A DNA stretch of 49,804 bases from a virus (IMGVR_UViG_2579779034_000011:1-49804), one strand, 5' to 3'; shown: positions 1-32,868, numbered from the stretch's first letter. Notes: generated by a model not told the origin, from the letters alone. Program-made: numbers and translations.

Positions 1-861
1 ATGGTTGACAATGTTTTTAAGAAGAAATTGGCATCAATTAAGAACGAACATGTGTCGGTGTTAGATAGTTACAAAGTAAGATCATTTAAAGAGACTCATA
101 GCGACACGGCCTGTATTGTGCGTATTATTGAAATATATTCACTGAATAAGCTGCGAGCTAAAGGTGAAAAGCTGTATTCACTTACGGGGTTAACAGTACC
201 TGATACGGAAACTGTGGCGAATGAGATCAACCTGCTCCTGAGCCGTTATGCCCAGTTGTGTCGTCAGGAAGAGGAAGAGTTATCTTTCCGGCAGCGTGAA
301 GTGACAAATGCGGAAGTTGCATGGAAAAGCACATTCTCAAAAAACGGCGTCAGTAGCATTGCTGAAGCCAAAACGAATAAAATGGGGCATGCTGAACGAG
401 CGGATGCTGAACGGTATTACCATCTGGCTGTTTCCCGGTTGAATGAACAACATAGTCGATTGAGCACGATCAAGCTTTTGCCGGGAGTACTGGCCGATGA
501 AGGAAACTACATTGGGAAGGGAATCGATAAGCGTTTACTGAATATATTTCCTCAATCCGGCCAGATCCCTGCTGATTTTATTTCTGTATTTAATGACAGT
601 GACGTTGTCCGTGATATTAAATTTATTACTGATGCACTCAAGTCTTTATCTGATTCCGTGAGTGAAATTATTAGTCGTTGTAGCGTTCCAACTGATCGTT
701 ATGTATTAAATAACGGTGGAATGGCAAGAGCTATGGCTTACAGGGAGTACTATCGAGCAGATAATTATGTATTACGTTCAGTCGTAAGTGACCGGGATTA
801 TGTTGAGCATGTAATGAAATACAATCTGGTTACTGAGTACAAAAATAAAATCTTTTCTTAA
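1..861 (+). CDS. hypothetical protein, possible scaffold-like partner of the downstream capsid gene (5' end may be cut by the window edge)
   Basis: 286-codon ORF beginning at window position 1; co-oriented with and 22 bp upstream of a P2-family capsid-like gene; no motif recognised. Confidence 0.45.
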   Translation: MVDNVFKKKLASIKNEHVSVLDSYKVRSFKETHSDTACIVRIIEIYSLNKLRAKGEKLYSLTGLTVPDTETVANEINLLLSRYAQLCRQEEEELSFRQREVTNAEVAWKSTFSKNGVSSIAEAKTNKMGHAERADAERYYHLAVSRLNEQHSRLSTIKLLPGVLADEGNYIGKGIDKRLLNIFPQSGQIPADFISVFNDSDVVRDIKFITDALKSLSDSVSEIISRCSVPTDRYVLNNGGMARAMAYREYYRADNYVLRSVVSDRDYVEHVMKYNLVTEYKNKIFS

Positions 862-883
862 ATACTTAAAAAGGTGAAAAACT

Positions 884-1888
884 ATGTATGCCTTCAAAAC
901 TGAAAGGCCGGACGCAGCACGTCGTTATCATAATAAATTCGTCACTGGCACTAACTATCAGGAAGAATCAAACAGACGCTTTGCATTAAGCGAACCTACT
1001 GAAAATATACTGCGTACCTCAATTCTGGAATCCGGGTGGCTTATTAAAAATATTACCCTACGTGATGTTAACGCCGTGTCAGGTAATGCCGTCAATATTG
1101 GTGCCAGTGAACTGTATACCGGACGTGTGGATGGTGGCCGTTTCCACAAAAAAATGGCAATCAATGGTACGGAGTTCTTTCTGACAGAGACGGATACCTG
1201 CGCCCGGATCAGCTATTCCGATATGTCTCATATTTACCATACCGGCGTGCCGGATGAGTTTGAGAAAACGGTTGAGAGCTTTTTTGCCCAGGCATATGCG
1301 CTGGACATGCTGCGGGTCGGTTTCAACGGTGTGTCGATTGCAAATACTACAAACCCGGAAATCAATAAAAAAGGCGAGGATGTCAATATTGGCTGGCATG
1401 CACTGGCGAAAGCCTACGGGAACGGAAAGCAAATCATCTCTGAGCCTGTCACTCTGGGAGAGACTGGCACCTGGAAAAATATTGATGCTCTGGCCAACCA
1501 TCTGATTACAGAGCTTATTGCTGAGCAGTTTCGTGAAGATCCTCGTCTGGTTGTACTGGTTGGGGCAGAGCTGGCAGCACATCAACGCCTGAAGTTATTT
1601 AATGCCGCAGACCGCCCGTCTGATGTGAATGCGGCACAGATGGCTACAAGTTCTGTTGCTGGCCGCTTTGCGTTTATTCCCCCGTTTATGCCGGGTAAGC
1701 GTCTGGCAGTAACGACGCTGGATAATCTGCATATTTACACTCAGGCGATAACACGCTGGTTTCGTGCTGAGTTTGATGATGAAAGCAGTGAATACGTGCA
1801 TTCCTACCTGCGCAATGAAGGTTATGCACTCGGTGAACCTGAACTGTACGCGGCTGTTGATGAGTGCACCCTGACGTTTGCGGATTGA
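884..1888 (+). CDS. P2-family (gpN-like) major capsid protein
   Basis: 334 aa; blocks LDMLRVGFNGV, VNIGW, FREDPRLVVLVGAELAA, TLDNLHIYTQ and C-terminal YAAVDEC resemble P2 gpN as I recall it; RBS-like AAAGGTGAAAA upstream. Confidence 0.6.
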   Translation: MYAFKTERPDAARRYHNKFVTGTNYQEESNRRFALSEPTENILRTSILESGWLIKNITLRDVNAVSGNAVNIGASELYTGRVDGGRFHKKMAINGTEFFLTETDTCARISYSDMSHIYHTGVPDEFEKTVESFFAQAYALDMLRVGFNGVSIANTTNPEINKKGEDVNIGWHALAKAYGNGKQIISEPVTLGETGTWKNIDALANHLITELIAEQFREDPRLVVLVGAELAAHQRLKLFNAADRPSDVNAAQMATSSVAGRFAFIPPFMPGKRLAVTTLDNLHIYTQAITRWFRAEFDDESSEYVHSYLRNEGYALGEPELYAAVDECTLTFAD

Positions 1889-1901
1889 CTTAGCGACAGA
1901 A

Positions 1902-1923
1902 AGACCCGCTCAGAGGCGGGTCT
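1902..1923 (+). terminator. hairpin after the capsid-like gene (terminator-like)
   Basis: inverted repeat AGACCCGC/GCGGGTCT 14 bp after the stop codon, followed by a weak T tract. Confidence 0.4.
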
Positions 1924-2085
1924 CGTTTACAGCATCAGGAAAAATGAAGAACTATTTTTAAGCAGAGGCTTAAGCATGCCAGCGTTAATTAATCCAGGCA
2001 ATGATCAGTTTTCGGTTATAAATTTCTTGCCTCACCAGGAATGCGCGGGATATAGTTTAAAGGTTGCCGCAAAATCGGCAGCCGG

Positions 2086-2111
2086 GCGTAGGAACCCGTG
2101 TTATCTGAAGG
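2086..2111 (+). promoter_or_regulatory. seqA-like box of a P4-type RNA immunity leader
   Basis: GTAGGAAC...TCTGAAGG; both blocks are complementary to the box at 2262..2288 on the same strand. Confidence 0.4.
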
Positions 2112-2261
2112 CGATACTACACGCGCTAGGCGTGTTTTTTTGTGTCGCAGCTTTGACTCACCTAAAATTTATGGTGTGGTGGCTGATTGTATTTTTTTAT
2201 TTTTTACGCCACATCATCAGAATTATGGTAGTCCAGGCGGGGCAGCTTTCGGGCTGGCCGG

Positions 2262-2288
2262 TATCCTTCAGAGCCGGTATTCCTACCC
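2262..2288 (+). ncRNA. candidate CI-RNA-like immunity RNA core (seqB-like); RNA ends not determinable
   Basis: CCTTCAGA...TTCCTAC is the reverse complement of both blocks in the upstream and downstream boxes. Confidence 0.35.
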
Positions 2289-2310
2289 CCGTCTGGGCTA
2301 CCACCCATGA

Positions 2311-2351
2311 GCGTAGGAACTCCGGTGGTAGCGTTACCCGCTATCTGAAGG
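2311..2351 (+). promoter_or_regulatory. seqC-like box overlapping the RBS of the first gene of the primase operon
   Basis: GTAGGAAC...TCTGAAGG repeated; the TCTGAAGGAGG segment contains the Shine-Dalgarno of the ORF starting at 2363. Confidence 0.4.
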
Positions 2352-2362
2352 AGGTTGCCATT

Positions 2363-2566
2363 ATGGCTACAGTCCCTGCTTTATCTCACCCTGAATTTAC
2401 CTTTGTCTTTCTGGCTGTCCGCCGTACAGACCGTGATGCCCGTCCACGCCCTGTGCGTGTAATCGCAGAATGCGAGCATGCTGCACGCCTTAAACTTGCC
2501 ACTGAATTTATCCTGAGCTTTGCTGCCCGTATCCCTGTGAAAAGAGCCGGGGAGGTGGTTGCATGA
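2363..2566 (+). CDS. hypothetical protein (first gene of the primase operon)
   Basis: 67 aa; GGAGG 8 nt upstream of ATG; stop overlaps the next start (ATGA). Confidence 0.5.
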   Translation: MATVPALSHPEFTFVFLAVRRTDRDARPRPVRVIAECEHAARLKLATEFILSFAARIPVKRAGEVVA

Positions 2567-3202: not shown

Positions 3203-5886
3203 AAACACCGTCTGTATCCACGATTTCCGGAGCTGCAATTGGGCGCTGGCCTTATATCCTGTCAGCATTAGGTATTAAAGTACCGTCCGCAGGACATCAT
3301 GGGGCTTGCCCTGCCTGTGGTGGAAAAGATCGTTTTCGACTGGACGATAAAGCGGGGCGAGGGACGTGGTTTTGTAATCAGTGCGGTCATGGCGATGGTC
3401 TTGATCTGGTTCGTCTGGTGACAGGAAGAAAGATAAAAGAAGTCGCCGGGATGGTATCTGAGGCGCTTGCATTACCAGAAATACAGGAGAAGCCCGCATT
3501 GCCAGCCAGGAAAAAGGCCGCAGGAAAAGAAGCGGGCGCGGAGCGATATACCAGACTCAGACAGCAGTCCTGCAATGGTGAGCCGGTCTATCTGACAAAT
3601 AAGAGCTTACACGGGTATTCACTTCCCTTGCTGTCACAGCCTTTGAATCTGGCCGGAATAACATTTTCCACCGGTTCATTACTGCTGCCTTTGACGGATA
3701 TTTCCGGGAATATTACTGGTGGCCAGCTTATCAATCCTGACGGGGATAAAAGTCTGCTGCCCGGTAGCCAGCTGTCTGGCGCATTCATTGCCCTGACCGA
3801 TATACCCGCTGAAACACCTGAACAGGTGATTATCACTGAGGGTTTTGCCACGGCGCTTACCGTCAGTCTGCTGACTGAAGGATGGATCGTGGCGGCTGTC
3901 GCTGCCACCAATTTACTGAAGGTGACGGAGCAGATCCGAAAACGCTGGCCGGAAACCCGGATCATTCTGGCCGGAGATAATGATCTGGCTGACGGCAAAG
4001 AAAACACCGGGCGTATTCAGGCAGAGAAAGCCGCCAAAGCGGTGGATGGCTGGGTAACGCTCCCTCCGGTACGCCATAAGGCTGACTGGGATGATTATCG
4101 GCAGGAAGTGGGGAAAGAACGGGCGAGAGATGCCTTTCGTGAAGAAATGACGCTGCATGGCAAAGGGCAGACCCGTTTACCAGAAGGGTTCCGGCTGACA
4201 AAAGAATATTTGTGGTACGACAAGCTGGTTAATAAGTCTGATGGTGATACAGAGATACGTAATATCAAAATTTGCAGTCCGTTGCGGGTGACGGCAATCA
4301 CCAGTGATGCTGATGGAAGTAATTACGGGCGTTTGCTGGAATGGGAAGATACCAACGGAAACAGCCGTAAATGGGCAATGCCGATGGAGATGCTGGGCGG
4401 TAGCGGGGAAGAACTGCGCCGCGTTCTGCTGGTTAACGGGCTTTCTTACATCAACATTAACGGCATGGCCAGAGCATTCCTGATGGAATATATCTCGCTG
4501 TGTAAACCGGACAGAAAAGTAACCTGTGTGAATAAAACTGGCTGGCACGGCGGGGTTTACGTTCTCCAGGATGAAGTGATAGGGCGCGAAGCCCAGTCAG
4601 TCATCTTACAAACATCGAGTGTGCAGGGGCGTGATTTTCGTGTCAGCGGCACATCAGAGGGCTGGCGTGAAAATATAGGCCGTTATTGCATAAAGAATGC
4701 CCGTCTTGCCTTTGCGGTGAGTCTGGCATTTGCTGCCCCCCTTCTGAAACTGGTTGGTATCGGCGGTGGAGGTTATCACCTCAAAGGGGAATCCACAGAC
4801 GGTAAAACCACGACGATGAAAGTGGCTGCATCAGTATGTGGTGGAACAGATTTCTGGCATACGTGGCGGGCGACGGGGAATGCCTTAGAAGGAACGGCGA
4901 GCCGCCGCAATGATGCCACGCTGATGCTGGATGAAATCCGGGAGGTTGACGGCAGGGAGGCGGGAAATATCGCTTATATGCTGGCTAACGGGCAGGGCAA
5001 AGCCAGAGCCAGAACAGATGGTTCGGTAAGGGAAACCAACCGCTGGAATCTGTTGTTTCTGTCTACCGGGGAACTGTCACTGGTAGAGCATGCGGCAAGC
5101 GCCGGGGAACGTACGTATGCCGGGGTTGAGGTCAGAATGATCCAGATCCCAAGCGATTCGGGCAAGTATGGCGTGTTTGAAGAACTTCATGGCTTCAGTA
5201 GCGGGAAAACCCTGGCTGAGCATCTTGAGCAGCACGTAGCGCATTATCATGGTGCACCATTCCGCGACTGGCTGTATTGCCTGACCGCTGATCTGCCGGA
5301 ACTGACCAGTCAGGCGAAAGCCTTATTGAAAGAGTATACCCGAAGGCTGACGCCGGAAAATGCCGGGAATCAGGTTGGCCGGGCTGTTACCCGTTTTGCT
5401 CTGGTTGCGATGGCCGGGGAGCTGGCCACAAAAGCGGGCATCACAGGATGGCCGGAGGGAGAGGCCTTTCGTGCCGCTCAAAGCTGTCTGGCTGCATGGA
5501 TGGCTGACCGGGGCCATACAGCTAATCAGGAAGATAAAGCGGCACTTGAACAGGTTCGGGACTTCATGACGCGTAATCAGTTCAGTCGGTTTGCTGACTG
5601 GAATGACGACAGGAACCGGCCTGTTTCAATGATGGGATTCAGAAAAGTCGATAAAGGAGACAACGTGACAGAGCCGGTTGTGACGTTCTACGTTCTCCCG
5701 TCAGGCTGGAAGGAGATCTGTAAGGGATTTGACTCGCGTAAGGTGGCCAGGTTGTGTGTGGACGCGGGCTGGCTGAAACCCGGTGAAGATGGCCGGACGC
5801 AAAACAGCATTCGCCTGCCAGAAATAGGGCTTAAACGTGTGTACCAGTTCAATACACAGGTACTGGGAAGCGCTGAACCTGAGTGA
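3199..5886 (+). CDS. P4 alpha-like primase-helicase (Zn ribbon + TOPRIM primase + P-loop NTPase)
   Basis: 895 aa; CPACGG...CNQCGH zinc ribbon; EGFATA primase motif; DND acidic motif; Walker A GESTDGKTT; Walker B LMLDEI. Confidence 0.85.
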   Translation: MKTPSVSTISGAAIGRWPYILSALGIKVPSAGHHGACPACGGKDRFRLDDKAGRGTWFCNQCGHGDGLDLVRLVTGRKIKEVAGMVSEALALPEIQEKPALPARKKAAGKEAGAERYTRLRQQSCNGEPVYLTNKSLHGYSLPLLSQPLNLAGITFSTGSLLLPLTDISGNITGGQLINPDGDKSLLPGSQLSGAFIALTDIPAETPEQVIITEGFATALTVSLLTEGWIVAAVAATNLLKVTEQIRKRWPETRIILAGDNDLADGKENTGRIQAEKAAKAVDGWVTLPPVRHKADWDDYRQEVGKERARDAFREEMTLHGKGQTRLPEGFRLTKEYLWYDKLVNKSDGDTEIRNIKICSPLRVTAITSDADGSNYGRLLEWEDTNGNSRKWAMPMEMLGGSGEELRRVLLVNGLSYININGMARAFLMEYISLCKPDRKVTCVNKTGWHGGVYVLQDEVIGREAQSVILQTSSVQGRDFRVSGTSEGWRENIGRYCIKNARLAFAVSLAFAAPLLKLVGIGGGGYHLKGESTDGKTTTMKVAASVCGGTDFWHTWRATGNALEGTASRRNDATLMLDEIREVDGREAGNIAYMLANGQGKARARTDGSVRETNRWNLLFLSTGELSLVEHAASAGERTYAGVEVRMIQIPSDSGKYGVFEELHGFSSGKTLAEHLEQHVAHYHGAPFRDWLYCLTADLPELTSQAKALLKEYTRRLTPENAGNQVGRAVTRFALVAMAGELATKAGITGWPEGEAFRAAQSCLAAWMADRGHTANQEDKAALEQVRDFMTRNQFSRFADWNDDRNRPVSMMGFRKVDKGDNVTEPVVTFYVLPSGWKEICKGFDSRKVARLCVDAGWLKPGEDGRTQNSIRLPEIGLKRVYQFNTQVLGSAEPE

Positions 5887-5911
5887 TTATCGCGTGAGTC
5901 TTATTTTTATG

Positions 5912-6105
5912 AGGTAACACTGGTAACAGAGGTAACACCCGTTACTGATGCGGTTCTTCAGTGTTACCAGTCAAAAATACTGACTGGTAACAGAGGTAAC
6001 AAAAAATGGTGTGTTACCACGCGTTACCTCTTGATTTTGCTAACTGGTAACAGATTAAATCCTTTTAAATCAATAGCGTTACACGTGTTACCAGTGTTAC
6101 ACGTT
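5912..6105. repeat. iteron array, probable origin of replication of the P4-like element
   Basis: about 12 copies of heptamer GGTAACA/TGTTACC in both orientations, including an 18-bp direct repeat CTGGTAACAGAGGTAACA twice; immediately downstream of the primase-helicase gene. Confidence 0.6.
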
Positions 6106-23657: not shown

Positions 23658-24149
23658 ATGTTAAAACGTGAAGATGCATTGAGACTTTTTAATTACAATC
23701 CAGATACTGGAATTCTTACATGGAAGAATCCACCTCGGTCCTCTAGATTTATCTATGGCGCTGTTGTTGGCTATAAAACAAATGGATATCTGCAGGTAAA
23801 ACTTTATGGAATGCGGCTATATGTCCATAGAATTGCATGGCTGATGGTTTACAATGATTGGCCAACCGATGTGATTGACCATATTAATGGTGATAGGTCT
23901 GATAACCGGATAGCCAATCTTCGTGTTGTTACTAACACTCAAAACTCATGGAACAGCAAGATGAGGAAAAACAATTCATCTGGTGTGAAGGGAGTGACTT
24001 TTAATTCTGCTGCAAACAAGTGGGTTGGAAGAATTAGAGTCAATGGTAAAAGGATTCATGTAGGGTGTTTTGACGATATCGAGGAGGCTAGAAAGGCAAT
24101 GGAAAATGCCAGGATAAAATATCATGGTGAATTCTCCAGTATGGGATAG
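23658..24149 (+). CDS. HNH homing endonuclease with AP2-like DNA-binding domain
   Basis: VIDHINGDRSDNRIANLR HNH motif; C-terminal GVKGVTFNSAANKWVGRI AP2-like; absent from lambda at this position. Confidence 0.8.
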   Translation: MLKREDALRLFNYNPDTGILTWKNPPRSSRFIYGAVVGYKTNGYLQVKLYGMRLYVHRIAWLMVYNDWPTDVIDHINGDRSDNRIANLRVVTNTQNSWNSKMRKNNSSGVKGVTFNSAANKWVGRIRVNGKRIHVGCFDDIEEARKAMENARIKYHGEFSSMG

Positions 24150-24282
24150 ATGGGTTAATTCGCTCGTTGTGGTAGTGAGATAAAAAGAGGCGGCGCTTAC
24201 TACCGATTCCGCCTAGTTGGTCACTTCGACGTATCGTCTGGAACTCCAACCATTGCAGGCTGAGAGGTCTGCAAAATGCAAT

Positions 24283-24340
24283 CCCGAAACCGTTGTGCAG
24301 GCTCTAACTATTACCTGCGAACTGTTTCGGGATTTTTTCT
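24283..24340 (+). terminator. tR'-like terminator ending the lambda 6S-RNA-like leader
   Basis: CCCGAAAC ... GTTTCGGG stem followed by ATTTTTTCTTT. Confidence 0.7.
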
Positions 24341-24342
24341 TT

Positions 24343-24417
24343 GGGTCAGTCGTATAAAGGTCATTACGGAAGGCTGTTAACCTTCTTATCGTGGTTCGAG
24401 TCCACGCTGTCCCGCCA
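24343..24417 (+). tRNA. tRNA-Asn-like (anticodon GUU), possibly degenerate
   Basis: hand-folded cloverleaf: perfect anticodon stem GAAGG/CCTTC with loop CTGTTAA, perfect T arm CGTGG-TTCGAGT-CCACG, 3' CCA; one mismatch each in acceptor and D stems. Confidence 0.55.
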
Positions 24418-24422
24418 AATAT

Positions 24423-24498
24423 GCTGGTTTAGCTCCAATGGTAGAGCAGTCGCCTTGTAAGCGAATGGGTAGCGGTTCAAGTCCGTTAACCAGCACCA
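24423..24498 (+). tRNA. tRNA-Thr (anticodon UGU)
   Basis: hand-folded cloverleaf: 7-bp acceptor GCTGGTT/AACCAGC, D stem GCTC/GAGC, anticodon loop CTTGTAA, T loop TTCAAGT, 3' ACCA. Confidence 0.7.
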
Positions 24499-28164: not shown

Positions 28165-28659
28165 ATGAATATGGCAGCACCAAAGGGCAACCGATTTTGG
28201 GAGGCCCGCAGTAGTCATGGGCGAAATCCTAAATTCGAATCGCCTGAGGCGCTGTGGGCTGCTTGTTGTGAATACTTCGAGTGGGTGGAAGCTAACCCGC
28301 TATGGGAGATGAAGGCGTTCTCGTATCAGGGTGAAGTGATACAAGAGCCTATCGCCAAGATGCGAGCGATGACCATTACCGGCCTCACTCTGTTCATTGA
28401 TGTGACGCTTGAAACATGGCGCACATATCGCCTGCGAGAAGATTTATCTGAAGTCGTTACGCGAGCAGAGCAGGTCATCTACGACCAGAAATTCTCTGGC
28501 GCAGCCGCTGACCTTCTCAACGCTAACATCATCGCCCGTGATTTGGGCCTCAAAGAGCAGTCGCAAGTTGAAGACGTGACACCTGATAAGGGAGATCGCG
28601 ATAAGCGGCGCTCTCGTATCAAGGAGCTATTCAACCGTGGAACTGGACGCGATTCTTGA
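28165..28659 (+). CDS. 3: terminase small subunit (P22 gp3-like); start may be the Met at 28171
   Basis: [48 protein letters not shown] ... matches P22 gp3. Confidence 0.9.
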
Positions 28660-30139
28660 TAACCTGAGCGACGAAGAGCAAATCGAATTGCTCGAGCTAC
28701 TCGAAGAAGAAGAGAACTACCGGAACACACACCTGCTATATGAATTTACGCCATACAGCAAACAGCGTGAGTTCATCGACGCCGGGCATGACTATCCAGA
28801 GCGCTGTTTTATGGCTGGTAACCAGCTTGGTAAGTCATTTACTGGTGCTGCTGAAGTCGCGTTTCACCTTACCGGGCGTTATCCTGGCACAAAAGGCTAT
28901 CCTGCTGATGGTAAATATGGCGGAGAGTGGAAAGGTAAGCGTTTCTATGAGCCTGTTGTCTTCTGGATTGGCGGCGAGACAAACGAGACTGTAACCAAAA
29001 CGACTCAACGTATCCTGTGCGGTCGTATCGAAGAGAATGATGAGCCTGGCTACGGTTCCATACCGAAAGAAGACATCATTAGCTGGAAGAAGTCTCCTTT
29101 CTTTCCGAACCTTGTTGATCATCTTCTGGTTAAGCATCACACGGCTGATGGCGTTGAAGATGGCATTTCAATCTGCTACTTCAAACCATACTCGCAAGGC
29201 CGTGCTCGCTGGCAGGGTGACACAATCCACGGCGTGTGGTTTGACGAAGAGCCGCCATACAGCATTTATGGTGAAGGCCTTACCCGTACCAACAAATACG
29301 GGCAATTCTCAATTCTGACGTTTACCCCGCTGATGGGGATGTCTGACGTTGTTACCAAGTTCCTGAAGAATCCCAGCAAGTCTCAGAAAGTGGTCAACAT
29401 GACCATCTATGACGCTGAGCACTACACCGACGAGCAGAAAGAGCAAATCATCGCATCCTATCCTGAGCATGAGAGAGAGGCGCGTGCTCGCGGTATTCCT
29501 ACGATGGGTAGTGGTCGAATCTTCCAGATACCGGAAGAGACGATTAAGTGTCAGCCGTTTGAGTGCCCTGATCACTTCTACGTAATTGGCGGGATGGATT
29601 TCGGATGGGATCACCCGCAGGCGCAGGTTCAGCTTTGGTGGGATAAGGACGCAGACACAATCTACGTTTCACGCGCGTGGAAGGCGAAAGAAAAAACAGC
29701 CGTTCAGGCGTGGGGAGCTGTTAAATCATGGGCGCATAAAGTGCCAACAGCATGGCCTCATGACGGAAACCAGCACGAGAAGGGCGGCGGTGAGCAGCTC
29801 AAAGGGCAGTATGCAGATGCTGGTTTTATGATGTTGCAGGAGCATGCGACATGGCCTGATGGTGGTAACGCGGTGGAGCCTGGCATCACTGAATTGCGAG
29901 ACATGATGCTCGATGGTCGCTTCAAAGTATTCAACACCTGTGAGCCATTCTTTGAGGAGTTCCGCCTCTATCACCGTGATGAAAACGGGAAGATCGTCAA
30001 GCTTAACGACGACGTTCTCTCAGCCGTTCGCTATGCATACATGATGCGCCGCTTCGCCAAAATGATGCGCGACATCAAAAAACCAAAAGAGAAAAAGATA
30101 CCAGCCCCAATCAGGCCCATCGCACGGTCAACAAGATAG
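28637..30139 (+). CDS. 2: terminase large subunit (P22 gp2-like)
   Basis: 500 aa; N-terminal [35 protein letters not shown] and ATPase/nuclease core match P22 gp2. Confidence 0.95.
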
Positions 30140-30148
30140 ATACTGTTG

Positions 30149-30649
30149 TTACGGCTTGAGAAATTCAGAGGCAGCGGAATTCAGAGCGTTAATAAATGCT
30201 ACCTTATGCTTGTATGCATCTAATGCTGTAGCGAATCCGCTTTTTGTGTATTTCTTGCCTTCAACCACAAATTGCCACATGTAGTTATTTGTGTCCTTGC
30301 GATAGGAAACTCCTTTGTATCCAGTTGAATTGTCGCAATCCATGCCACGGTTTAGTCCGTTCAACTGCTTATTGGTATCTCTAAGATTACAGATGCGGTT
30401 ATCAGCACGGTTTCCGTTTATGTGATCTACTGCTTCGGGCCAGTAACCATAGTAGTGCGCAAAACAAATTCTGTGCACGTAGTACAGTTTTTTACCAAGC
30501 CTTACATCAAGGTATCCGTTTCCATGCTGGCACCCAACGGGCTTGCCGTTAAGGTCTGTCCTCCTTGTGCGATTAGCCGCGTACAAAATTCCGGTTTCAG
30601 CATCGTATGTGAAATTTTTCCTTATATCTTCTATAGATGGATGGCTCAC
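30149..30649 (-). CDS. HNH homing endonuclease with AP2-like domain (paralogue of 23658..24149)
   Basis: VDHINGNRADNRICNLR HNH motif; GYKGVSYRKDTNNYMWQF AP2-like; antisense between terL and portal. Confidence 0.8.
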   Translation of the reverse strand: MSHPSIEDIRKNFTYDAETGILYAANRTRRTDLNGKPVGCQHGNGYLDVRLGKKLYYVHRICFAHYYGYWPEAVDHINGNRADNRICNLRDTNKQLNGLNRGMDCDNSTGYKGVSYRKDTNNYMWQFVVEGKKYTKSGFATALDAYKHKVAFINALNSAASEFLKP

Positions 30650-30699
30650 AATAGAATCTCCTGTTGAAGTTGTCCCATTGATTTTATCACGGTAAAGTT

Positions 30700-32868
30700 A
30701 TGACTGACAACGCAGAGCGATTAAATAAGATACTGCAAGCATTCGATGTTGATTGGATGTCTTCCGACGAGGCGAGAACAGAAGCCTCTAACGATTTATA
30801 CTTCAGTCGCATAAGCCAATGGGATGACTGGCTATCAAACTACACCACCCTGCAATATCGCGGACAATTCGATGTTGTTCGCCCGGTGGTCAGGAAGCTG
30901 GTCGCAGAGATGCGCCGGAACCCTATCGACGTTCTCTTCCGACCCAAAGACGGCGCTAATCCTGATGCAGCCGATGTGTTGATGGGGATGTATCGTACTG
31001 ATATGCGGCATAACACGGCAAAAATTGCCGTTAACGTTGGCGTTCGTGAGCAGATAGAGTCCGGCGTTGGTGCATGGCGTCTGGTCACGCAGTACGAAGA
31101 CAACGATCCAACAAGCAACAATCAGGTAATTCGACGCCTGCCAATTCATGAAGCCTGCTCACACGTCATATGGGACGCCAACAGCAAGCAGATGGATAAG
31201 AGCGACGCTAAGCACTGCACGGTGATTAACGCCTTGTCGCGCAATGGCTGGAAAGAGTTCGCAGAGGATTACGGTATTGATCCGGACACCTTGCCATCTT
31301 TCCAGAATCCGAACGATACATGGCTGTTTCCGTGGGTATCGAATGATGTCGTCTACGTCGCTGAGTATTACGAGGTCGAAGAGAAGAAAGAGAAAGTCTT
31401 CATCTACCGCGACCCGCTGACAGGTGAGCCGGTCAGCTATTACCAGCAGGATATCAAAGACGTCATCGACGACCTGGCTAATCGTGGATTCATTAAGGTA
31501 GCAGAGCGTAAGGTCAAGCGTCGGCGTGTGTATAAGTCGATCATCACCTGCACGCAGATACTGAAAGACCGCGAGAAGATAGCTGGAGAGCATATCCCAA
31601 TCGTTCCTGTGTACGGCGAATGGTCATTCGCTGGTGACAAGGAGTGCTACGAGGGCGTGGTAAGGCTGACGAAAGACGGTCAACGCCTTCGTAACATGAT
31701 CATGTCGTTCAACGCCGATATTGTTGCTCGTTCACCGAAGAAGAAACCTACCTTCTTCCCTGAGCAAATCGAAGGCTACGAATACATGTACGGTGGAAAT
31801 GATGACTATCCGTACTATCTGCAGAACAGGACCGATGAAAACGGTAACGACCTGCCGATTGGTCCAATCTCCTACATGGAAAACCCTGAAGTGCCGCAAG
31901 CCAACGCTTATATGCTTGAGGCTGCCACCAACGCAGTGAAAGAGGTGGCTAGTCTTGGTGTGGATGCGCAGGCAGCAAACTCTCAGGTCGCTTTCGATAC
32001 CGTCAATCAACTGAACATGCGGGCAGACCTTGAGACATACGTGTTTCAGGATAACCTGGCTACCGCAATGCGACGTGATGGCGAGATTTATGCCTCAATG
32101 GTCAACGATATTTATGACGTTCCTCGTCATGTAACGCTGACACTTGAAGATGGAAGCGAGAAAGACGTTCAACTCTATGCGCAAGTTGTCGATTACCAGT
32201 CCGGCAATGTGGTCACACTCAACGACATTCGCGGTCGCTATGAGTGCTATACAGACGTCGGACCATCCTTCCAGAGTATGAAGGAACAGAACCGCGCAGA
32301 GATTCAGGAGTTGCTAACCAAGGTTCCGCAAGGTACTCCAGAGTTCCAGATGCTGATGCTGCAATACTTCACGTTGCTTGACGGTAAAGGCGTCGAGATG
32401 ATGCGAGAGTACGCGAACAAGCAACTGGTGATGATGGGGCTGAAGAAACCAGAAACACCTGAAGAGATGGAGATGGTGCAGCAGGCACAACAACAGCCGC
32501 AGCAGCCATCAGCAGAGCAAATTCAGGCGCAGGGTATCCTTCTGCAAGGTCAGGCTGAATTGCTCAAGGCAGAGAACCAACAGGCGCAGATTCAGGTTGA
32601 AGCCGCCAAGGTTGAAGCCCAAAACCAACTCAACGCCGCGAAGATTGCGGAAATCTTCAACAATATGGACCTCGACAAGCAGGCAGAACTGCGTGAGTAC
32701 CTCAAGCTCGTAGGTCAATTCCAGCAACAGCGCAGCAAAGATGCTCGTGCTAACGCTGAGCTGCTTCTTAAAGATGCAGACCAGACTCATTCACAACGCA
32801 TGGATTTCGCGAATCTTATGCGTCAAGTTCAAATCCCCTCCGGCGGAGTAGCCGAGACACCTCAATAA
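30700..32868 (+). CDS. 1: portal protein (P22 gp1-like)
   Basis: 722 aa; extensive match to P22 gp1 including the C-terminal coiled-coil region. Confidence 0.95.

Follow-up and report, generated by a model that had tools for sequence, protein, structure and literature searches.

The genes for the large terminase subunit (terL, gene 2) and the portal (gene 1) are nearly adjacent in P22, where the stop codon of the first overlaps the start codon of the second as TAATG. The same junction is found in phage L, while in Dewey and IME10 the two genes abut as TAA-ATG. In the window analysed here (the whole stretch of 49,804 nucleotides, IMGVR_UViG_2579779034_000011, a P22-like prophage in an Escherichia coli chromosome), these genes are separated by 560 bp, most of which is filled by an open reading frame on the opposite strand. 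What is this gene, and why does it lie beside the terminase? A sequence-only reading of the window had described it as an HNH-AP2 endonuclease whose position would suit either an aid to DNA packaging or selfish homing.

We consider it very likely that the gene is a free-standing homing endonuclease gene (HEG), carried in a compact cassette (30128..30816) at the junction between the terL stop and the portal start of an E. coli prophage of the Dewey/IME10 type.

An antisense endonuclease gene separates terL from the portal gene

The gene and its neighbours are arranged as follows:

28637..30139, plus strand: terL (P22 gene 2 type), matching Terminase_6N and Terminase_6C (1e-47 and 1e-27)
30149..30649, minus strand: HEG, 166 aa, with a GTG start at 30649-30647 and a stop at 30149-30151
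30658..30662, minus strand: Shine-Dalgarno sequence AGGAG of the HEG, 8 nt before the GTG
30700..32868, plus strand: portal (P22 gene 1 type), matching P22_portal (9e-163)
23658..24149, plus strand: paralogue of the HEG, an HNH_3 + AP2 endonuclease between the antiterminator and the holin, outside the cassette

The end of terL at 30139 and the start of the portal at 30700 bear out the size of the gap given in the sequence-only reading. terL and the HEG are convergent, with their stop codons 9 nt apart, and an SD-like GGAG/AGGA sequence occupies the equivalent position in all carrier types. Upstream of terL, Pfam identifies a small terminase of the P22 gp3 type (GP3_package), which we take to be the mark of a pac/headful phage and not of a cos phage. 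In the window, the only SD-like sequence ahead of the portal is a weak ACGG, and the translational coupling implied by the TAATG and TAAATG junctions of the empty alleles has probably been lost in the carrier.

The antisense HNH reading frame proposed earlier is confirmed by the ORF call, by a match of its product to Pfam HNH_3 (PF13392; E 5e-13, 48.9 bits vs a cut-off of 24.8) and by a match to PHROG 99, 'HNH endonuclease' (E 1e-49). HNH_3 is matched by all 10 members of the clade described below, and an NCBIfam search gave no family for the protein. The paralogy to the endonuclease at 23658..24149 holds as well, with 38% identity over 142 aa in BLASTP (E 2e-27).

Predicted fold and active site

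By sequence, the only solved relative of the HEG protein is I-HmuI (PDB 1u3e), with an E value of 0.015 and approximately 18% identity. In this alignment, VDHINGNRADNRICNLRDTNKQLNGLN of the HEG protein is matched with VDHKDGNKDNNLSTNLRWVTQKINVEN of I-HmuI, so that D75, H76, N88, and N97 fall on the DH…N…N positions of the active site. In I-HmuI we take these residues to be an Asp-His pair acting as general base and metal ligand, a structural Asn, and a metal-binding Asn. All four are invariant across an alignment of 19 homologues. The HEG reading frame and its predicted catalytic residues are intact.

An AlphaFold (AF2) model built from the 19-homologue alignment has a mean pLDDT of 81.7. Foldseek identifies I-HmuI (1u3e) as its top PDB match (E 5e-4, prob 1.00), corresponding to the beta-beta-alpha-metal fold; the TM score reaches only 0.44, as the domains are arranged differently. 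The second match is the AP2 domain 3igm (prob 0.95, E 0.046), which covers residues 114-159 with three strands and a helix. The model thus comprises an N-terminal beta-sheet region, the HNH_3 His-Me finger, and a C-terminal AP2-like domain of three strands and a helix (residues ~109-159).

The AP2 label of the sequence-only reading stands in part. It is supported at the level of the predicted fold, and the C-terminal part of the protein can be aligned with the genuine AP2 domain of the paralogue, which passes the Pfam AP2 threshold (33.6 bits vs 33.3); the Pfam score of the HEG protein itself stays below that cut-off (13.6 bits vs 33.3, E 0.083). The protein can thus be called 'HNH plus AP2-like' at the fold level only. 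We predict that it belongs to the I-HmuI-like HNH_3 class and binds DNA through its AP2-like C-terminal domain.

The slot is empty in most P22-like phages

The closest phages to the window are Dewey, CurroJimenez, HZ41, APC_JM3.2, IME10, and Louie. Their flanks are 96-98% identical to those of the window and the 566 bp in between are absent; in Dewey, terL stops at position 1966 and the portal ATG follows directly at 1967. This terL-portal module was examined in 216 complete E. coli genomes, 2 of which have the insert and 214 an empty slot. The 80 nearest IMG/VR loci comprise 6 occupied alleles, with a HEG protein of 98.8% identity, and 74 empty ones. We also collected 119 P22-like portals with a degenerate pattern from an arbitrary IMG/VR sample, 4 of which are accompanied by the HEG. 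Enough upstream DNA was available for 92 of these loci, and in 89 of them terL and the portal abut or overlap (gaps from -4 to +2). P22, L, Dewey, IME10, ST64T, and epsilon34 likewise have an empty slot.

Comparison of the gene 2-gene 1 junction across P22-like phages, as the sequence-only reading had suggested, hence finds the slot nearly always empty. The same reading would have been contradicted by a widely conserved gene with a broken HNH motif; we find instead a rare gene in which the motif is intact.

No decayed copies of the HEG were found among the sampled loci. Two loci considered as remnants of HEG loss were rejected: the 304-nt 'gap' of L119 is a frameshift in terL, and L132, although it reads CGC-CTA at portal codons 37-38, lacks a carrier-type 5' tract in the portal gene.

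The cassette includes a foreign portal start

A mismatch map against Dewey defines the extent of the imported DNA:

30128..30816, no strand assigned: imported cassette, 689 bp replacing 129 bp of the Dewey/IME10-type junction
30128..30139, plus strand: replaced terL end (last four codons and stop), encoding …ARSTR* instead of …ARRT*, a short terL-side co-conversion tract
30700..30816, plus strand: diverged portal codons 1-39, with 51 mismatches in 117 nt vs Dewey, travelling with the HEG
30817..30829, plus strand: portal CAATGGGATGACT, encoding QWDDW, where identity to HEG-free alleles resumes

From left to right, the cassette thus contains 12 nt of terL end, the HEG, 50 nt of spacer, and foreign portal codons 1-39. 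To its left, the window is ~98% identical to Dewey up to position 30127. Portal nucleotides 1-117 show 56% identity to the HEG-free allele of Dewey, rising to ~98% thereafter; despite this nucleotide divergence, the portal protein is conserved across codons 1-39. Only two states occur among the 80 nearest IMG/VR loci: the diverged portal start is found in 6/6 carriers, the other haplotype in 74/74 empty alleles, and there are no intermediates.

The closest sampled carrier to the window cassette is locus L005, which is 76% identical in the gene, 75% in the portal start, and 74% in the flanks. It has the closest HEG type, and the terL end of the window resembles its own (…RPTR*). A blastn search of 30650-30830 against the phage collection gave no match for the diverged portal 5' tract, the donor of which is unsampled.

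The right-hand boundary falls on a conserved part of the portal. SQWDDWL is the most conserved peptide within the N-terminal 400 aa of the protein, and CAATGGGATGACT encodes part of it. This sequence may belong to the recognition site, or it may simply be the first patch of homology. Next to it, codons 37-38 read CGC-ATA or CGC-CTA in 10/10 carrier types vs 1/105 empty alleles. Such a change would fit immunity of the carrier allele; yet the carrier tracts share descent, and we regard it as a hint.

One endonuclease clade occupies the same site in different phages

An antisense homologue of 166 aa, SEN22_3 (YP_009191456), annotated as a homing/HNH endonuclease, is present in the same slot of the Salmonella phage SEN22 (Lederbergvirus). 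It is 68% identical to the window HEG at the protein level and ~67-71% at the DNA level, and it shares the promoter, the conserved box (both described below), and the portal-side boundary at codon 39. The backbone differs, being of the Salmonella P22/L type and ~75% identical to the window in the 3' part of terL and in the portal. Against the empty allele of L/P22, the flanks of SEN22 are ~96-97% identical. On the left the match extends up to TAATGGC, the old stop/start overlap, and on the right the first 117 nt of the portal contain 47 mismatches vs phage L, after which the match returns at the very codon found for the window. At its left junction SEN22 keeps TAATGG and an unaltered terL, in contrast to the 12 nt of terL replaced in the window. 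TAA-TGG is likewise kept at this junction by several other carrier types. Judging from these remnants, the original insertion took place just within the start of the portal gene.

SEN22_3 was described by its authors as a homing endonuclease or mobile-element insertion, and SEN22 forms plaques (PMC5261728), which shows that the insertion is compatible with phage growth. We read the window HEG as a homing element of a known kind, with a same-site Salmonella homologue already published, and not as a packaging factor.

A search covering 5.8 billion proteins yielded nine clusters at least 65% identical to the HEG protein, the next relatives being at most 44% identical. On the contigs inspected, all nine clusters (9/9) lie antisense between terL and a P22-type portal, and all clade members are full-length. 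The clade spans three small-terminase families (GP3_package, Sf6_terminase, and Terminase_2) and two size classes of terL.

The cassette is less diverged than its surroundings

Eight E. coli carriers entered the comparison: the window itself, a RefSeq prophage, and six loci from IMG/VR. Divergence among them is 0-1.0% in the cassette vs 1.2-3.5% in the adjacent terL and portal/scaffold DNA, which makes the cassette 4-6 times less diverged than its flanks. A further pair of carriers, L006 and L007, share a tract of ~800 bp with a single mismatch, although identity elsewhere is only 65% between their terL genes and 94% between their portals. The tract runs from ~60 nt before the end of terL through the HEG to about nucleotide 190 of the portal.

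The co-converted tracts differ in length between events. On the terL side they measure 12 nt in the window, 0 in SEN22, and ~60 nt in L006/L007, and on the portal side 117, 117, and ~190 nt, respectively. Varying tract lengths are expected from break repair. Taken together, sporadic distribution, precise insertion, co-converted flanks, and low cassette divergence lend strong support to selfish homing, one of the two roles suggested by the sequence-only reading.

Pairwise dN across the clade is 0.08-0.27 and synonymous sites are saturated, which makes dN/dS ratios non-computable and the inference of selection qualitative. On that footing, the comparison indicates long-term purifying selection on the HEG protein.

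A predicted promoter and a conserved box precede the gene

Upstream of the HEG we identify the following elements:

30681..30710, minus strand: predicted sigma-70-like promoter, with a -35 element TTGTCA (30710-30705), an 18-nt spacer, and an extended -10 element TGATAAAAT (30689-30681)
30668..30680, minus strand: conserved box CAATGGGACAACT, beginning 2 nt after the -10 element, at the predicted transcription start

The promoter agrees with the consensus at 10/12 positions and has the TG extension, in a scan that gave no more sites than shuffled sequence, which also averaged ~2. The element is kept in 10/10 HEG-positive types despite 65-76% nucleotide identity. Its -35 element overlaps portal codons 2-4, and carrier portals consequently begin with M-(E/D/T)-(N/D)-(N/K). 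The scan for terminators was likewise no richer than shuffled sequence. A plus-strand hairpin is present inside the HEG reading frame at 30471-30487.

The box follows the form RTGGGAYNAYT at the same distance from the -10 element in 9/9 types. It is an inverted 11/13 match to the portal CAATGGGATGACT at 30817-30829, a level reached in 157 of 200000 shuffles of the spacer for a motif that was chosen post hoc, after the repeat had been seen. RNAalifold independently selects the pairing between the box and the portal motif as the outer helix of the plus-strand RNA, with 95.6% of cells pairing. Covariation in this stem is not above that of shuffles (92/500) because both arms hardly vary. The box may be an autorepression operator, by analogy with the documented case of I-TevI, or it may be an RNA partner of the portal motif in a long-range stem around the portal translation start.

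Comparison with known endonucleases

I-HmuI, from the Bacillus phage SPO1, is the best solved match of the HEG protein in both sequence and fold, with the DH…N…N residues aligned. It differs in being encoded within a group I intron of a DNA polymerase gene and in having a C-terminal helix-turn-helix instead of an AP2-like domain. I-HmuI is a nicking enzyme, and the HEG protein may either nick DNA or cut both strands.

HNH plus AP2 is a recognised architecture of HEGs, which cluster by terminase and structural genes (PMC10448857). The homing endonucleases of this set, found in phages, cyanobacteria, and protists and including the ICP1-like 'IPA-HNH' proteins, resemble the window HEG in having an N-terminal HNH domain followed by a C-terminal domain of three strands and a helix, and in being free-standing, located beside essential genes such as terminase, and sporadic (PMC10448857). 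The AP2 domain of the window HEG, unlike theirs, is below the Pfam threshold. Conversely, IPA-HNH domains are too diverged for the HNH_3 profile (PMC10448857), whereas the window HNH is a canonical HNH_3.

Free-standing HEGs are known to cut away from their insertion site and to co-convert the flanks (PMC2988022). The seg and mob genes of T4 share with the window HEG a position between conserved genes, co-conversion of flanks, and a variant carrier flank that is presumed immune (PMC2988022). The seg genes differ in belonging to the GIY-YIG type, and the T4 elements reside in a virulent phage and use T4 middle/late promoters, whereas the window HEG lies in a temperate P22-like prophage, antisense to the late operon. 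The operator of I-TevI mimics its homing site, and this target-resembling sequence overlaps the promoter of I-TevI itself (PMC2988022). The window HEG has a comparable arrangement, in which the operator is a candidate only.

A further group of small HNH proteins encoded beside terminase genes is represented by HK97 gp74. This type is conserved across its phage group, encoded on the same strand, found in cos phages, and equipped with a zinc-binding [CxxC]2 motif (PMC3592412). None of these hallmarks (conservation, co-orientation, cos, [CxxC]2) is seen for the window HEG.

Proposed mechanism

The evidence fits 'intronless homing' with co-conversion of the flanks (PMC2988022). In our proposal, the HEG would be expressed from its own predicted promoter, against the direction of late transcription, in a cell that also contains a HEG-free P22-like genome, through either co-infection or superinfection of a lysogen. 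The enzyme would nick or cut this genome near the terL/portal junction, and recombinational repair would copy the cassette from the HEG-positive genome, dragging along variable lengths of the flanks. We presume that the diverged 5' end of the portal gene protects the carrier allele from the enzyme it encodes. Since the carrier keeps the invariant portal motif, any such immunity must lie in the neighbouring bases. More speculatively, the enzyme may recognise a stretch that takes in the invariant portal CARTGGGAYGAYTGG and codons 37-39 beside it, and the inverted near-copy of CARTGGGAYGAYTGG at the transcription start may be an operator through which the HEG represses itself, as in I-TevI.

Some observations weigh against homing. 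The right-hand boundary shared by two backgrounds could merely reflect the first perfect patch of homology, SQWDDWL. Low divergence and identical cassettes could arise by ordinary homologous recombination between mosaic P22-like phages. Finally, an occupancy of ~1-4% is unlike that of a very efficient drive.

An extension of the homing proposal, tentative and in our view rather unlikely, regards the cassette as a self-regulating unit of phage competition, combining recognition of CARTGGGAYGAYTGG, protection by recoded codons, and an operator, or an mRNA stem in place of the latter. The enzyme may recognise the invariant CARTGGGAYGAYTGG, which P22-like phages may not easily mutate, and cut beside it in HEG-free genomes, while the recoded codons 37-39 may protect its own allele. 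The operator may hold expression low in the lysogen, by analogy with the action of I-TevI at its own promoter. Alternatively, the inverted repeat may form a long-range stem in the late mRNA and thereby restore control over a portal translation that is uncoupled from terL. If the cassette is such a competition unit, a carrier prophage would both damage and convert superinfecting P22-like phages.

Alternative explanations

The gene could primarily be a weapon in competition or defence, by which the prophage cuts superinfecting HEG-free P22-like phages and the spread of the cassette is a by-product. This explanation is compatible with homing, and we judge it quite improbable as the primary role. 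In its favour, the window is a prophage in the E. coli chromosome, and the predicted sigma-70-like promoter with its extended -10 element faces away from late transcription and is kept in all types. PADLOC gives a weak match of the protein, to the generic 'HEase' model only, and HEGs are documented to cause marker exclusion, as the T4 seg genes do (PMC2988022). However, the promoter may be silent, or the box at its start may mediate autorepression. P22-like prophages already keep relatives out by repressor immunity and other systems, and the low population frequency speaks against a strong benefit.

It is very unlikely that the HEG is a passenger, moved only by ordinary modular recombination with crossovers in short conserved patches, the nuclease being inactive or irrelevant. 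P22-like phages are indeed highly mosaic, and the cassette ends on the right at the best-conserved peptide of the portal. Against this stand the invariant catalytic residues, the full-length reading frame, and the strong purifying selection across a clade with saturated synonymous sites, as well as the occurrence of nine clusters in one slot across three types of terminase module and the 4- to 6-fold lower divergence of the cassette in eight carriers. Such fidelity to a site, conservation of residues, and low divergence would scarcely be expected unless the protein had an activity linked to the site.

Packaging, the other role suggested by the sequence-only reading, does not survive the comparison. 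An accessory nuclease of the HK97 gp74 kind that cooperates with the terminase in DNA cutting would account for the position next to terL, and HNH proteins beside the terminase are known packaging components of cos phages (PMC10448857, PMC3592412). The HEG, however, is absent from ~96-99% of close relatives, including 214/216 E. coli prophages with the same module and the functional phages P22, L, Dewey, and IME10, and it is antisense to the packaging operon. Its HNH domain belongs to HNH_3 and not to PF01844, for which the protein gives no match even at E<=1. There is no CxxC motif in the 166-aa sequence, the cysteines being found only at positions 40, 62, 87, and 104. The small terminase of the P22 gp3 type is that of a pac/headful phage, and a packaging role would leave the flanking co-conversion tract without explanation. 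We therefore regard this role as highly improbable.

Lastly, although many phage HNH endonucleases, such as I-HmuI (the closest solved structure), are encoded within introns, a group I intron interrupting terL or the portal has practically no probability here, since both genes are complete reading frames with full-length Pfam matches, the HEG is intergenic and on the opposite strand, and an Rfam search of 29800..31100 found no family at E<=1.

Implications

The finding leaves the knowledge of packaging in these phages unchanged. It does account for the local, anomalous divergence at the portal start, which would otherwise be mistaken for a mosaic boundary. Beyond the published Salmonella homologue, the locus is of interest for its clean pairs of empty and occupied alleles, for a portal-side boundary that recurs in two backgrounds, and for the target-like box at the HEG promoter.

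Carrier and empty alleles with 98% identical flanks are available in culturable phages and prophages (Dewey, IME10, and P22/L vs SEN22 and E. coli lysogens). They constitute a convenient natural system in which to measure homing, co-conversion tracts, and possible autoregulation in a temperate phage. For P22-like phages as a family, the terL/portal junction emerges as a dedicated landing site for a single clade of HNH homing endonucleases.

Portal codons and sequence features around the endonuclease

Codons 37–38 of the portal gene (30808..30813 in the window) read CGC-ATA or CGC-CTA in every type of carrier, a carrier being an allele with an endonuclease between terL and portal (the window and the comparison loci L002 and L005–L016). 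Among the 105 empty alleles, which lack the endonuclease, the same codon pairs occur only once, in locus L132. E. coli uses both ATA and CTA rarely. The change may confer self-immunity, or may simply reflect the shared descent of the tract.

A conserved inverted repeat pairs 30668..30680, at the predicted transcription start of the endonuclease gene, with 30817..30829, in the codons for the portal motif QWDDW. These two arms are a candidate operator or RNA stem. At the other end of the gene, just 3′ of the endonuclease stop, a weak terminator-like hairpin is observed on the minus strand within the final codons of terL (30103..30117). A minus-strand terminator is annotated at the equivalent place in the record of the Salmonella phage L (MW013502, 1920..1957, minus strand), despite the absence of an endonuclease from this slot in L.

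Within the protein, positions 41 and 92 are near-invariant across the clade of homologues occupying the same slot. Residue 41 is Gln in the sub-lineage of the window and Pro in all other members, while residue 92 is Thr in the window and in the E. coli 23CRST032 prophage (L004) and Ala in the remaining members.

Additional endonuclease genes and a neighboring element

Further endonuclease genes, and the tRNA genes found beside one of them, are located as follows.

Window 23658..24149, plus strand: HNH_3 and AP2 paralogue, flanked by antiterminator and holin
Window 24343..24417: tRNA-Asn, downstream of the paralogue
Window 24423..24498: tRNA-Thr, downstream of tRNA-Asn
L004 2614..3081: additional annotated HNH endonuclease, between ssb and a Rad52-family recombinase gene
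L008 296..844, antisense: HNH_3 gene at the scaffold–coat junction
L013/L014 279..821, antisense: HNH_3 gene at the same junction
L021, L041, L043, L044, L053, L055 and L072, about 5715..5969, antisense: HNH_3 gene at the same junction

Of the 1774 E. coli genomes matching at least part of the 2.1-kb stretch that carries the paralogue and the tRNA genes, only 16 contain it whole, and the L004 prophage, also a carrier, lacks this paralogue. The rarity of the intact stretch indicates that this prophage carries two sporadic endonuclease insertions, the second being the 23658..24498 region.

Positions 1..2500, at the left end of the window, match E. coli chromosomal DNA annotated with a P2-family major capsid protein and an Icd-like cell-division inhibitor. 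By these matches, the window also includes a second prophage or satellite-like element adjoining the P22-like prophage.

The antisense gene at the scaffold–coat junction of several P22-like phages is distinct, encoding about 180 residues with 41% identity over 85 residues. Since this junction is also occupied by an HNH_3 gene, the structural operon of P22-like phages contains at least two endonuclease landing sites.
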